Part shown: positions 1-52,583 of the stretch, piece after piece
Position numbering within the stretch: position 1 is the first letter of the stretch
How the letters are laid out: the number at the start of each line of letters is the position of its first letter
Sequence record: NC_023693.1
Length of the DNA stretch: 64,000 nt
Direction: 5' to 3' (one strand)
DNA from: Escherichia phage phi92
The notes under the pieces: model-generated
What the model was told of the DNA's origin: nothing
The model's input: the letters and a program-made list of their open reading frames with translations, nothing else
The model's database searches: none
Program-made: the position numbers and the translations under genes

Positions 1-137
1 AGCCTACTTTCTTAAAAGCGCAATAAATCAGAATTATCTTGATTTTTAGTCGGTTTTATAGTATAGAAAATATGTAAATGATAATCATTATCAGCTATCT
101 TCCACGGGTGGCACTATTTCACGCCAGATCATTTCAT

Positions 138-166
138 TTGACAAGGTGTATATAGATGTTTAGACT
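138..166 (+). promoter_or_regulatory. sigma70-like promoter (TTGACA-N17-TAGACT)
   Basis: TTGACA 138-143, 17 bp spacer, TAGACT 161-166; same architecture recurs about 10 times in the window. Confidence 0.35.
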
Positions 167-698
167 TGCCAAGCCATTGATTTACTTAGAATTTATCTGT
201 TTTGTTGTGAGTAGTACCTTTCTTGCTCAGAAAATAATCAAAAGTCTTATAAGTCATTGAATGATAATGCAAATGATAATTATTCTCATTGATATTTGAG
301 GGGGACGGTCGGCAGAAATCGGGGGGCGCTGAAAATCGCGTTAAGCACCTCTCGCAAGCGAGCAGTATTTTGCGGCAAGTTATTGATATTATTGACTTTA
401 CGCTTATGAAAAGGGGGGTGTGTCGAAATAAATCGGGTATACCGGAAAATTTTTGTGGCATAGATATTTATTTGTCTATATTATGTACAAAGGGGGTGTG
501 TTAAAAATATTAGGTATATATAGAATAATTGATAGGGAAATCCTATACTAATTCCTTCATTATTGCAGTGGGTGAAAGACAGAATTGAAGATGCAAATAA
601 TGCTTGCATTGAATAAAAATGTCTGTATAGTGGTTTGCATACCGCGCACGACGCGTTTCCATTTTCAATAAAATGTTAGCATTATGGGGAGGTAGAAA

Positions 699-1160
699 AT
701 GAGACAACTATCTATACTGGAAGCACATGTGCAATGTGTTGCAGATTATGTCAAAGAACACTCAAGTTTGTTGGATGTAACCTGTGCAGTGCAAAATGAT
801 GTAGGTATTGTCTGTGTGCGACATATCTTATCTGAAACTCGTTATGAAGTATTTCGTGCCAAGTTGTTTGGATGTGATCAAGTGCATGTAAACTTCTTGG
901 ATTCCAATTTTCGTTATGCTTTAGAAAATATTGATGATTATCTTCCTTGCTCTCCGACCGGATATGTGATGATAGCAGCAAATGAAGTAACACCAAACAA
1001 CAGTGAGCGGGAAACTTTGTTACGGAAGAAAATACGCCAACTGCAAGTGTTGAATGAACTGAAAGAAGAGATTGAAAAAGAACTGAAAGAAGATTTTGGT
1101 ATGCTTCCAAAAGACGCTTTGAAATGGTATGATGAACTAGGAGAGGAAAGTTATGAATAA
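699..1160 (+). CDS. hypothetical early protein (paralog of 6912-7163 product)
   Basis: 153 aa ORF; GGGGAGG SD 7 nt upstream; shares HxSLL..V....G...V.H.LS.T.Y.VF block with the 6912-7163 protein. Confidence 0.6.
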   Translation: MRQLSILEAHVQCVADYVKEHSSLLDVTCAVQNDVGIVCVRHILSETRYEVFRAKLFGCDQVHVNFLDSNFRYALENIDDYLPCSPTGYVMIAANEVTPNNSERETLLRKKIRQLQVLNELKEEIEKELKEDFGMLPKDALKWYDELGEESYE

Positions 1161-3128: not shown

Positions 3129-3306
3129 TATGGGTGTCCCTGAACAACTCCTCTTTATTGTAGGATTAGTAGGCTTACTGGCGGCTGGCGCTAAAGCCGC
3201 TTCTCACACGCATCACATAATGTTAAGATTTCTATTCCTACTCCCTTCTATCCTCGTACTATTAGTCATACTGATCGATAACATTTTGCACAATTAAGGA
3301 GAGGTT

Positions 3307-3891
3307 ATGAGTAAAGTTATACCAAGCAGTTATGAATTATTGCAGTTTTATGTATATTACTTAGACTGGGTTAATAGATCGAATGTTAAAGACAATGCGA
3401 TGTTTAGTAAAAACATCTGTTTAACAGAAAGTATCTTCCGTTACTGGCACACAGGTAGAAAGTGTACACACAGTGAAGCTATGCGCATTGTAGGAGAATA
3501 TCTGGAGCAATTGCAAAAAGCAGAGCTACCTGTCCTTCACCCATTCAATGAATCTAAAGAAGAATTAGAACAAGAGTGTAGAGAAGGTAAGTGCCATTTG
3601 AATGAAAAACGTATCGAATGGGTGAGGCAACGTTTAGCCGATGCAGGAAAGACTCCTAGTGACTCTGACTATACGTGGTATGATGTAGAGGGTTTAGTTC
3701 AAGGTTTTGAGGCTTGTGCTATAGATAATACCAACTTTGCCAAAGTTTTATGCGAGGCTTATGACCTGGCAGATAAAATCCGAAATCATGGATGGAAACA
3801 AGAGCATAAAGAATCATATGAACGCCTTGACAAGATTTTCAAACAGATCTATTCTAACCACAAGAAGATGTTCCAAATGGAGGATGTGTAA
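3307..3891 (+). CDS. hypothetical protein (paralog of 2315-2683 product)
   Basis: 194 aa, AAGGAGAGG SD. Confidence 0.6.
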   Translation: MSKVIPSSYELLQFYVYYLDWVNRSNVKDNAMFSKNICLTESIFRYWHTGRKCTHSEAMRIVGEYLEQLQKAELPVLHPFNESKEELEQECREGKCHLNEKRIEWVRQRLADAGKTPSDSDYTWYDVEGLVQGFEACAIDNTNFAKVLCEAYDLADKIRNHGWKQEHKESYERLDKIFKQIYSNHKKMFQMEDV

Positions 3892-4577
3892 TGAAAGAGA
3901 TTATGTTTGAAGGGCATCGTTACGAAGTTCCAGACAATGCAAATTTCATGGCTCGTGATATCACTGGAGATGTGTTCTGGTTTGAAGATGAACCTGTGTT
4001 TTCTTCGAACAAACACTGGTTTTCACAACAATCTTCTTCGGAAAATATGACTTTTGGTTATGTAGAACCTAAAGTGCGCTGCAAAGCAGCTTCTTCTTTG
4101 GTAAAAATTTCCCAAGATGATCAAGAAAATACTCAAGATGTTGTTAGTGCGCTACTGAAGTACATTGCAGAACTTGAGAAGAAAATTAAAGAAGCAGAAA
4201 CTAAGGTGAAAGCACGATCAGCCATCATTGAAGCTATGTCTGAACGTATCTTAGAGCTAGAAGATTTGTGTGGAGAGGCTTATCAAGTGGTCGGTGCACT
4301 GGCTTATGAAGCACAAATGTTTGAAACTTCAGAACAAGTTTCACATATGTTAGATAATTTAAGTGAATGTAAAATGATTCATGATGATGTATTGCCATTT
4401 TGTTGCAATGTTAACAAAACAGAGCAAACAGAAGATTCAGAAACAGTTTATGTTCCGCTGATGTGTGTTCCAGATCATCTAAAAGGTGTATTCTCTTGTA
4501 AATGGTCACTGTTGAGCGTTACTAATTGTGGTGAAAACTATTCTGCCAACATTGAATTGCTAAAACACGTTAAATAA
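3891..4577 (+). CDS. hypothetical protein
   Basis: 228 aa, ATGA start/stop overlap with upstream gene. Confidence 0.6.
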   Translation: MKEIMFEGHRYEVPDNANFMARDITGDVFWFEDEPVFSSNKHWFSQQSSSENMTFGYVEPKVRCKAASSLVKISQDDQENTQDVVSALLKYIAELEKKIKEAETKVKARSAIIEAMSERILELEDLCGEAYQVVGALAYEAQMFETSEQVSHMLDNLSECKMIHDDVLPFCCNVNKTEQTEDSETVYVPLMCVPDHLKGVFSCKWSLLSVTNCGENYSANIELLKHVK

Positions 4578-48178: not shown

Positions 48179-49072
48179 ATGAAAGTTAGTATTCTACATG
48201 GTGTTGGCTGTTATGTTACTGATGTAGACGTTAAAGTCTTTACATTCTCTGGTGGAGAACAACATGTTCAACTAGACACGAATCTATCAGGTTTCAATCA
48301 TGCTACAGACAGAATCTTACTCTCTTTAGAAGTAAGATCTGCTAAAGACTTGATGACTTTGGTTATGACTAAGAATGCATTGGACAATATGCTATATCAT
48401 AAACCATATTGTGTTGATTTGCTCATGTTGTATGTGCCATATGCACGACAAGACAGAGTGTGTGAACCTGGGGAAGCATTCGGAGTTAAAGCATTTGCTT
48501 CTATAATTAATTCATTAAATTTCTCACGTGTTATCGTTGCTGATCCACATAGTGATGTTACTCCAGCGGTGTTTGACAGACTCTGTGTAATACCTCAAGA
48601 AGAAATTGCTTACGAAACTTTAAAGTGGAAGTTACGTATGGAGAATTTTGCTCTTGTTAGTCCTGATGGTGGTGCTCTTAAGAAAATATTTAAATTATCT
48701 AAGAAAATGTCTTTAGATGTGTTCTGTGCAGAGAAGGTTAGAGATACTGCAACAGGTGCTATTGTTCGTACAGACATTTCTGTACAGGATTTCAATAAGC
48801 GTAACCTGATGATCGTAGATGATATCTGTGACGGCGGTAGAACTTTTATTGAATTGGCTAAAGTGCTACGTGCTCGTAACGCAGGTAAGATTGAGTTATA
48901 TGTTACACACGGTATCTTTTCTAAAGGTCTTAAAGAGTTAAGTGAGCACTTTGACTGCATTCATTCTCTTAATGTGTGGGAAGATAACATCCAAGAAGAT
49001 TCCGGTGTTCTTGTTAAGAATCAGTCAGATTTGCAACAACAAATTGTATCTCCATACGTGTGGAATTTTTAA
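48179..49072 (+). CDS. ribose-phosphate pyrophosphokinase (PRPP synthetase) family protein; candidate ADP-ribose pyrophosphate synthetase (Adps-like)
   Basis: VSPDGGALKK and PRPP-binding-type IVDDICDGGRT motifs; AAGGAG SD. Confidence 0.8.
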   Translation: MKVSILHGVGCYVTDVDVKVFTFSGGEQHVQLDTNLSGFNHATDRILLSLEVRSAKDLMTLVMTKNALDNMLYHKPYCVDLLMLYVPYARQDRVCEPGEAFGVKAFASIINSLNFSRVIVADPHSDVTPAVFDRLCVIPQEEIAYETLKWKLRMENFALVSPDGGALKKIFKLSKKMSLDVFCAEKVRDTATGAIVRTDISVQDFNKRNLMIVDDICDGGRTFIELAKVLRARNAGKIELYVTHGIFSKGLKELSEHFDCIHSLNVWEDNIQEDSGVLVKNQSDLQQQIVSPYVWNF

Positions 49073-52507: not shown

Positions 52508-52583
52508 ACATCGTTAGCTTAGTTGGTAGAGCAAGGGTCTTTTAACTCCAAGGTCGAAGGTTCGAATCCTTCACGATGTACCA
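52508..52583 (+). tRNA. tRNA-Lys-like (anticodon TTT), weak anticodon stem
   Basis: perfect acceptor ACATCGT/ACGATGT, D-arm GCTTAGTTGGTAGAGC, loop CTTTTAA, T-arm GAAGG-TTCGAAT-CCTTC, CCA; anticodon stem only about 3 bp. Confidence 0.55.

Follow-up and report, generated by a model that had tools for sequence, protein, structure and literature searches.

The first 698 bases of Escherichia phage phi92 (NC_023693.1) hold no convincing gene, and the question that they raise is what kind of DNA they are. We analyzed a stretch of 64,000 nucleotides, hereafter the window, which is the left 64 kb of a genome of approximately 147 kb. An earlier note on this DNA had offered several readings of these bases: a regulatory region, an origin or packaging-proximal region, or the edge of a terminal repeat. 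Comparison with related phages assigns the window to the genus Justusliebigvirus (phi92-like phages, subfamily Stephanstirmvirinae) and places bases 1-698 at the left physical end of the virion chromosome, where a direct terminal repeat (DTR; bases 1-343) is followed by the leader of an early operon (bases 344-698). Most of the earlier readings gained ground. The terminal repeat is present whole rather than as an edge, as seen from the alignment with Salmonella phage UAB_1 and from the 342-bp repeat of phage BME3; the regulatory reading is supported by a promoter whose position is conserved, by other promoter-like sites, and by predicted operators for a host regulator; and the packaging-proximal reading is supported by an invariant element at the right border of the repeat that is also present in chromosomal islands. 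The best explanation, which we hold to be fairly probable, is that this chromosome end consists of the DTR and the leader, that the host regulator Fur tunes the first transcription to iron, and that the border of the repeat directs terminase. Phi92-like and phAPEC8-like phages have broad host ranges and are candidates for therapy.

The left chromosome end and its terminal repeat

A megablast search with bases 1-1200 of the window matched 127 phage records, and the best matches were Escherichia phages Antha (98.5%), VEcB (98.3%), and PHB05 (97.3%), all members of Justusliebigvirus. The match begins at base 1 of the record in VEcB, PHB05, W22, PD114, and UAB_1. In the UAB_1 record, a direct terminal repeat of 343 bp is annotated at the left end (1-343) and again at the right end (147427-147769), and window bases 1-343 are colinear with both copies at approximately 97% identity, with the same first and last base. 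Aligned base for base with either copy, the repeat stops after base 343 (...AAAATCGCGTTA). The UAB_1 paper describes short DTRs (PMC11350853), a 342-bp DTR was determined with PhageTerm for BME3, which belongs to the same genus (PMC12210895), and all Stephanstirmvirinae genomes are reported to terminate in DTRs (PMC12695924). No second copy of bases 1-343 was found inside the 64-kb window. Taken together, these comparisons identify bases 1-343 as the complete left copy of a short DTR.

The DTR of this genus is already known. The repeat described here shows no structural difference from other DTRs of Justusliebigvirus and Stephanstirmvirinae (UAB_1, BME3), as it has the same sequence, the same start and end bases, and the same place before rightward early genes. 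The published accounts give the length and sequence of the repeat, without Fur boxes, promoter, or border motif.

The left terminus itself (bases 1-16, plus strand) reads AGC...TCTTAAA. In records that span the junction, TGTTG precedes window base 1, and both TGTTG|AGC and TCTTAAA are invariant in six phages of three lineages. The record of the Phapecoctavirus Schickermooser begins at the base homologous to window base 1. Records with other start points show 0.8-1.6 kb of nearly gene-free DNA to the left of base 1; therefore, a gene-free region of approximately 1.5 kb lies at the concatemer junction of the subfamily. The right-end part of this region, which is outside the window (for example, positions 3240-3990 of the junction-spanning record L003), has features of its own, namely approximately 400 bp nearly without G on the plus strand, a hairpin (GCCTATGCCGGACACATAGGC), and a perfect palindrome (GCTTGCAAnnnTTGCAAGC). 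All 3 are kept from E. coli phages to Klebsiella phage KP2025, and they may represent an origin or a structured RNA.

Predicted Fur operators in the repeat

Repeated ATGATAAT units had been noted near the start of the window. The units are present, with their coordinates corrected to 78-85, 261-268, and 273-280. The total in the window is 4 compared to 5.2 expected, and 3 of the 4 copies lie within 203 bp, a clustering with a chance probability of about 4e-5. Judged by their match to the Fur consensus, the units are halves of Fur-box palindromes, which the earlier note had missed. Predicted Fur operator cluster A (bases 73-93) combines two sites that overlap each other with a shift of 6 bp, one at 73-87 and one at 79-93; the latter (TGATAATCATTATCA) is a perfect 7-1-7 box. 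Predicted cluster B (bases 262-288) consists of a box at 274-288 (TGATAATTATTCTCA, 1 mismatch) and of sites at 268-282 and 262-276, again in 6-bp shifts.

Box A (bases 74-92, GTAAATGATAATCATTATC) matches the GATAATGATAATCATTATCATTATC-type Fur consensus GATAATGATAATCATTATC at 17 of 19 positions, a match expected 0.03 times per 64 kb, and the 7-1-7 unit TGATAATnATTATCA at 14 of 14. Box B matches the same two references at 15 of 19 and 13 of 14 positions, respectively. The number expected per 64 kb is 0.002 for perfect 7-1-7 boxes and 0.07 for boxes with no more than 1 mismatch; boxes A and B are the only boxes of the latter quality within the whole window. The weaker overlapping sites stand in exact 6-bp phase with them (73/79 and 262/268/274), and overlapping sites in such a phase are a hallmark of Fur clusters (PMC2189734). 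Boxes were scored by mismatch counts and by the published bit score of an identical core, that of nohA. The 15-mer of box A (TGATAATCATTATCA) also lies 233 bp upstream of nohA in the Qin prophage of E. coli K-12 (L149:4094-4108). For this "nohA" site of Chen et al. (22.3 bits), an oligonucleotide was gel-shifted by purified Fur, and Fur titration in vivo had picked out a fragment that carries the site (PMC2189734). Because an identical 15-mer is bound by Fur at nohA, binding of Fur to box A is very likely.

The boxes are also conserved, as islands in three diverged lineages. A footprint of bases 1-698 across five lineages left only eight conserved islands, two of which are the box cores (81-89 and 272-280), and no block of the repeat is conserved more deeply than the one that holds cluster B (TAAGTCATTGAATGATAATGCAAATGATAATTATTCTCATTGATATTTGAGG). 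Genomes of Justusliebigvirus, Phapecoctavirus, phiWec181, and KP2025 carry three or four boxes each, also next to diverged flanks, and the gene-free region holds three in each of the last three. In KP2025, box A is displaced by approximately 25 nt yet kept. Justusliebigvirus possesses two extra Fur-like boxes (TGATAATCATTCTTA), 58 bp apart and approximately 760-830 bp to the left of the repeat, near the right genome end (L003:3140-3212, with equivalents in L002, L004, L005, and L006). The second of these lies over the -35 of a good promoter-like site that faces rightward (TTAACT-17-TAAAAT), and a palindrome (TTATGCA...TGCATAA) lies between the two.

A tblastn search with E. coli Fur against 50,697 phage records gave no match in any phage of the group, and no phage-encoded Fur was thereby found. 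BLAST among 5,426 E. coli genomes returned no host sequence homologous to the Fur-box parts. Capture of the region from a host promoter was rejected, as the same search matched just a border module of 46-78 bp, inside the islands described below. We found no reports of Fur boxes in these phages in the open-access literature.

The right border of the repeat and the E. coli islands that share it

The right end of the repeat lies in a conserved module at bases 287-348 (plus strand), which comprises CATTGATATTTG, G-runs at 300-304 and 321-326, and then TCGCGTTA|AGCAC, the repeat ending after base 343. Bases 287-298 (CATTGATATTTG) and 336-348 (TCGCGTTA|AGCAC) are conserved islands and invariant in six phages, and the right border as a whole, a bipartite element in which about 40 nt separate TGATATTTG from GCGTTA|AGC, is likewise invariant among six phages. 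Both cuts, this one and the one at the left border (TGTTG|AGC), fall within GTTR|AGC. As a specific cleavage motif on its own, GTTRAGC was rejected, being too short and present in 10 copies in 64 kb; the information lies in the extended conserved context and not in the heptamer. No secondary structure of the border module was detected beyond that of shuffled controls (z = +1.67).

BLAST searches matched window bases 318-363 to 451 of 5,426 complete E. coli genomes at approximately 96%, and bases 286-400 to 517 of the same genomes. The border is carried by approximately 9% of E. coli genomes, where it lies within small integrative islands of two types (module copies at L011:11973-12046, a thrW island, and at L134:10005-10061 and L135:10001-10057). 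The thrW island, approximately 13 kb at tRNA-Thr, encodes an integrase and an O-like replication initiator with five iterons, together with genes that resemble those for a capsid protein (weakly), a tape measure, and Dit. The thiM island, approximately 8.8 kb within the thiamine pyrophosphate riboswitch of thiM, encodes an integrase, a serine recombinase, helix-turn-helix genes, and cargo such as GmrSD. When three phages and three islands are aligned, TGATATTTG and GCGTT(A/G)AGC are kept, with 41 nt between them, and the flanks differ. Convergent genes flank the module in the thiM islands, with their 3' ends toward it; therefore, a cis-acting DNA site is favored over a promoter. No motif resembling the left border was found in the islands.

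Among the 50,697 phage records, the thrW island matches Stephanstirmvirinae only. Its Dit-like protein is 53% identical to the product encoded right after the tape measure in phage ukendt, and its 613-aa protein is related to the ukendt tape measure (E = 1e-20). The N-terminal domain of its Rep protein is 99% identical over 105 aa to the N-terminal domain of gp053 of Mt1B1_P17 (L132:1828-2814 vs L011:9238-9807), a Phapecoctavirus protein with two winged-helix domains, which indicates recent exchange between phage and island. The thrW island also holds a sequence resembling box A (ATGCAAATGATTTTCATTATCA; L011:8139-8162), with 15 of 19 positions of the Fur consensus, approximately 960 bp upstream of its structural-like operon.

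An integrase, a replication module of their own, an incomplete set of virion genes, and a packaging signal of the helper type are the traits of satellites seen in these islands. The thiM type is absent from IMG/VR. That database also holds no virome-derived copy of the thrW type; all 12 matches have isolate-genome-style uncultivated viral genome (UViG) identifiers (numeric taxon-OID prefixes) and are taken to be prophage calls. By their genes and the shared module, the islands are probably undescribed satellites of Stephanstirmvirinae that would have copied the packaging signal of their helper, and we found no papers in the open-access literature on these islands or on satellites of this subfamily. 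Like PICMI in Vibrio (PMC10803314) and PLE of ICP1, they are small, integrative, and tied to one virulent phage group. In contrast to those elements, they are putative satellites, their helper would be a myovirus with DTRs, and the thrW type has helper-like tape-measure and baseplate genes. They would be satellites of virulent coliphages, a class that is barely documented in E. coli, and some carry defence genes such as GmrSD.

Because the satellite-like islands appear to copy the border module, we propose that the module at 287-348, including TGATATTTG and GCGTTAAGC, is the site at which terminase recognizes and cleaves the DNA. A conserved sequence is present at the virion DNA ends, as in a pac-like site, and its GCGTT(A/G)AGC core is found in the diverged islands as well. 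An invariant motif at this border would offer a handle on DTR packaging in the subfamily.

First transcription, competing readings, and the leader

The sigma70-like promoter that the earlier note had placed at 138-166 stands. This promoter, P1 (plus strand; TTGACA-17-TAGACT), matches the consensus at 10 of 12 positions, and when aligned relatives are scored with a simple sigma70 weight matrix, 5 of 6 show a promoter-like site whose end falls in the same column. P1 is probably the first early promoter used by host RNA polymerase. The other promoter-like sites on the plus strand are P2 (257-286; TTGAAT-18-TATTCT), a weak site that reaches 8.9 bits in PaulScherrer and phiWec181 and whose -35 TTGAAT is invariant in six phages; P3 (455-482; GTGGCA-16-TATATT), seen in Justusliebigvirus only; P4 (498-526; GTGTTA-17-TAGAAT), found at the same column in PaulScherrer, SD2, and phiWec181; and P5 (604-631; TTGCAT-16-TATAGT), for which the homologous column gives 8.1 bits in both PaulScherrer and SD2. 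Cluster B spans the spacer and -10 of the weak P2, and cluster A spans the -35 of a leftward promoter-like site; neither covers P1. In E. coli, 83% of Fur clusters overlap a sigma70 promoter (PMC2189734).

In the explanation that we favor, the repeat would be the first DNA within reach of host RNA polymerase after ejection, and the polymerase would start at P1 and at the weaker promoters further right, transcribing into the early genes. Fe2+-Fur, which is abundant in E. coli, would occupy both clusters: cluster A approximately 85 bp upstream of P1, over the leftward promoter-like site, and cluster B on the spacer and -10 of P2, approximately 100 nt into the P1 transcript. With Fur on both clusters, the first transcription would be damped in iron-replete cells and released in iron-starved cells. 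Late in infection, the border element would guide terminase to make the repeat ends. Of this account, the comparisons given above show what the DTR is, that the boxes match the consensus, and that they are conserved; use of the promoters, an effect of Fur on transcription, and a role of the border in cleavage are what we infer. Should Fur control the first promoter region, how efficiently these phages infect would depend on iron, which is in short supply in the gut, urine, and infected tissue, and their efficacy in vivo would be affected.

Phage-borne stx1 is a Fur-regulated gene, and the Fur box of sitABCD in lambdoid phages (PMC6969025) is likewise a host Fur operator within a phage genome. 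Those phages are temperate and the box controls prophage cargo, whereas the phage studied here is virulent and its boxes lie in a terminal repeat upstream of early genes. In cyanophages, Pho boxes and NtcA sites tie lytic phage transcription to a host nutrient sensor. Those sites serve another regulator and another nutrient and precede auxiliary metabolic genes, whereas the boxes of phi92-like phages lie at the chromosome end. The left end of T7 consists of a terminal repeat followed by the tandem early promoters A1-A3, and it has in common with the phi92-like end a short DTR on the side of the early genes with tandem host-type promoters nearby. To our knowledge, no host repressor sites are known at the T7 promoters. 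The T7 promoters are outside the repeat, whereas the best promoter and the operators predicted in phi92-like phages are inside it. We found no report in the open-access literature of Fur operator clusters in a DTR, of their conservation across a subfamily, of the parallel with lambda cos discussed below, or of the border module in islands.

Several observations weigh against iron control of the first transcription. Neither cluster lies on P1, the strongest promoter, and P2 is weak and lost in SD2 through its -10, so classical promoter occlusion is not clearly set up. The number of promoter-like sites in bases 1-1500 (8 vs 5.6 +/- 2.5 by chance) is not above chance; it is the conserved position of a promoter alone, and not the number of such sites, that counts as evidence. 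As these phages readily form plaques on laboratory media replete with iron, Fur is no strong block to infection. Finally, strong Fur boxes also adjoin the cos ends of lambda-type phages, which hints at a role related to ends or packaging over one in early-gene control.

Under this alternative, the boxes would serve the chromosome ends, and Fur would be an architectural or protective factor, comparable to IHF at lambda cos, that aids terminase in making or recognizing the repeat, or that shields or organizes the end that enters first. Both boxes are inside the repeat, and each virion end consequently lies within 55-93 bp of a strong box. In lambda, the identical 15-mer TGATAATCATTATCA occupies 48452-48466 (L150:953-967), a position that leaves 36 bp to the right end and 6 nt to cosQ, and the lambda-type sites known as "nohA" and "nohB" in the Qin and DLP12 prophages have the same 15-mer within 100 bp of the virion end or packaging site. 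At least 120 contigs in IMG/VR hold the 18-mer AAATGATAATCATTATCA. Of the 120 loci analyzed (L012-L131), 32 have the box within 600 bp of an end of the DNA analyzed. In 20, which span at least four diverged cos variants, the box is followed by a cosQ-like and then by a cosN-like element. A candidate IHF site is also inside the repeat (AATCAATGGCTTG; 170-182, minus strand, within the conserved block 166-182); the exact IHF consensus WATCAANNNNTTR occurs 7 times in 64 kb, with 2 of the matches in bases 1-698 (170-182 and 376-388, minus strand). The absence of either cluster from P1 fits this alternative as well. The two systems differ in that lambda has 12-nt cohesive ends and one box, compared to a 343-bp repeat and two phased clusters here, and the phages are unrelated. 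By these comparisons, two unrelated packaging systems retain a Fur operator of top strength beside the virion DNA end, and a general link between Fur and phage ends is suggested.

However, the thiM-type islands copy the border without a Fur box, and the box of the thrW island is weak and 3.9 kb from its border module, so the packaging signal is separable from the boxes. The two extra boxes of Justusliebigvirus are approximately 760-830 bp outside the repeat and overlap promoter-like sites. We know of no role for Fur in packaging, and no literature on Fur at cos or in packaging was found among open-access papers. A role of the boxes confined to the ends seems unlikely to us. A wider reading, which we offer tentatively, is that strong Fur operators are a recurrent and selected feature of phage ends, that Fur is a host factor there, and that the border is a packaging signal copied by undescribed E. 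coli satellites; the part of Fur at the ends may then be iron-gated first transcription, end protection, or terminase action.

The leader contains two copies of a G-rich motif, previously placed at about 410-425 and 490-505. GGGGGTGTGT is exact at 414-423 and 492-501 and occurs nowhere else in the window, and each copy is inside a repeat of approximately 35 nt (411-428 / 489-506). Copy 1 (411-448, plus strand; AAGGGGGGTGTGTCGAAATAAATCGGGTATACCGGAAAAT, repeat family D5) is found in Justusliebigvirus and KP2025 and is altered in Phapecoctavirus. Copy 2 (489-536, plus strand) doubles as P4 and is followed by the conserved ATAATTGATAGG (islands 513-521 and 525-536). These motifs could be initiator iterons, which would make the region a replication origin, either instead of or in addition to the function proposed above, with which an origin is compatible. 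The gene-free stretch of approximately 1.5 kb is conserved across the subfamily, the motif recurs, its core is similar to the thrW-island iterons (TTCTGTGGGGGTGTCTAACA, five copies), and the Rep domain of that island is nearly identical to the Phapecoctavirus protein noted above. We nevertheless regard an origin as distinctly improbable: there are two motif copies only, poorly conserved in KP2025 and Phapecoctavirus, the likeness to the thrW iterons is limited to 8 nt, there is no enrichment of DnaA boxes (2 in 698 bp, 102 in 64 kb), and no Rep or initiator homologue was found in the window. Moreover, the motifs are equally spaced to -10-like hexamers, as promoter elements would be. Copy 2 supplies the GTGTTA "-35" 17 nt before TAGAAT, and copy 1 has the same spacing to GAAAAT, which suggests, weakly, that the GGGGGTGTGT motifs are parts of tandem leader promoters.

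The boxes could alternatively act as a sponge, in which four to six strong boxes on each of hundreds of replicating genomes would titrate Fur, derepress iron uptake, and supply iron-dependent phage functions. This group of phages encodes ribonucleotide reductases (class III is mentioned in PMC12210895), and several predicted high-affinity boxes are present per genome. The Fur titration assay works likewise, with multicopy plasmids, and it recovered a fragment with this core. Yet the boxes are at fixed places near promoters and ends, whereas a sponge could sit anywhere; Fur is very abundant; and host expression may shut down before the number of genome copies is high. We give a sponge little credence.

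Binding of a phage protein, such as a repressor, small terminase subunit, or replication initiator, would make the likeness to Fur boxes a coincidence. The repeated unit does exceed the box slightly (ATGCAAATGATAAT is common to A and B), and the early genes are all of unknown function. The extension is, however, still inside the 19-21 bp site of Fur itself, the match is exact and in 6-bp phase, the variants among lineages (TGAGAAT, ATTCTCA) resemble natural variation of Fur sites, the group has no Fur-like gene by tblastn, and the same core binds Fur at nohA. Such a protein is very doubtful as the ligand. Chance repeats in low-complexity, AT-rich DNA are refuted by the conservation of the elements as islands across genera, the clustering probability, and the expected numbers of consensus matches (0.002-0.07), despite the slight AT-richness of the region and the unremarkable total of ATGATAAT copies.

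The untranslated leader (344-698, plus strand) has no conserved open reading frame (ORF), no Rfam family, and several promoter-like sites. The earlier observation that the first 700 bp or so lack a convincing ORF was borne out, the longest being 91 aa (186-461, minus strand) and 71 aa (289-504, plus strand). Small ORFs in bases 1-698 were rejected as genes, as differences of 1 nt in G-run length in relatives that are 88-98% identical over the region break both of the longest frames. Annotations of small ORFs in the records of Antha, AMO3598, and SD2 disagree with each other. A search of bases 1-1200 against Rfam at a permissive threshold gave one chance snoRNA match only (E = 0.61) and no known RNA family. 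The description of the leader as AT-rich holds in direction, with a GC content of 0.344 for bases 1-343 and 0.355 for bases 344-698, but the difference from the whole window (0.371) is only marginal. The further G-runs that had been noted are also there, as 4 of the 9 runs of at least five G in 64 kb are at 300-304, 321-326, 413-418, and 492-496. A canonical G-quadruplex was rejected, the four runs being 16-86 nt apart and thus too distant. The runs at 321-326, 413-418, and 492-496 differ by one base in length from those of UAB_1, PaulScherrer, SD2, and Antha, which is either real homopolymer variation or sequencing error.

The first early gene follows at 686-1160 (plus strand), where a Shine-Dalgarno sequence (GGGGAGG) precedes an ORF of 153 aa that matches phrog_14944 (function unknown) and no Pfam family. 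ORFs run rightward from 699 to approximately 12 kb; their products are small and, as is usual for early genes, of unknown function. Bases from approximately 563 to 698 are mosaic; many relatives insert 0.4-1 kb with one to three small genes between approximately 565 and the first gene, and by this comparison the leader is a hotspot of gene gain and loss.

Elsewhere in the window, a cluster of 15 tRNAs lies at 51.6-54.5 kb. ARAGORN gives one of these (52508-52583) an undetermined two-base anticodon (tt), which may reflect an unusual anticodon loop. GC content climbs to 0.42-0.46 at 62001-64000, compared to approximately 0.37 elsewhere in the window. Four records labelled "Campylobacter phage" (MG065645, MG065689, MG065639, and MG065656; A145, A110a, A150, and C3, respectively) are approximately 97% identical to phi92-like E. 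coli phages and are probably mislabelled or contaminants.

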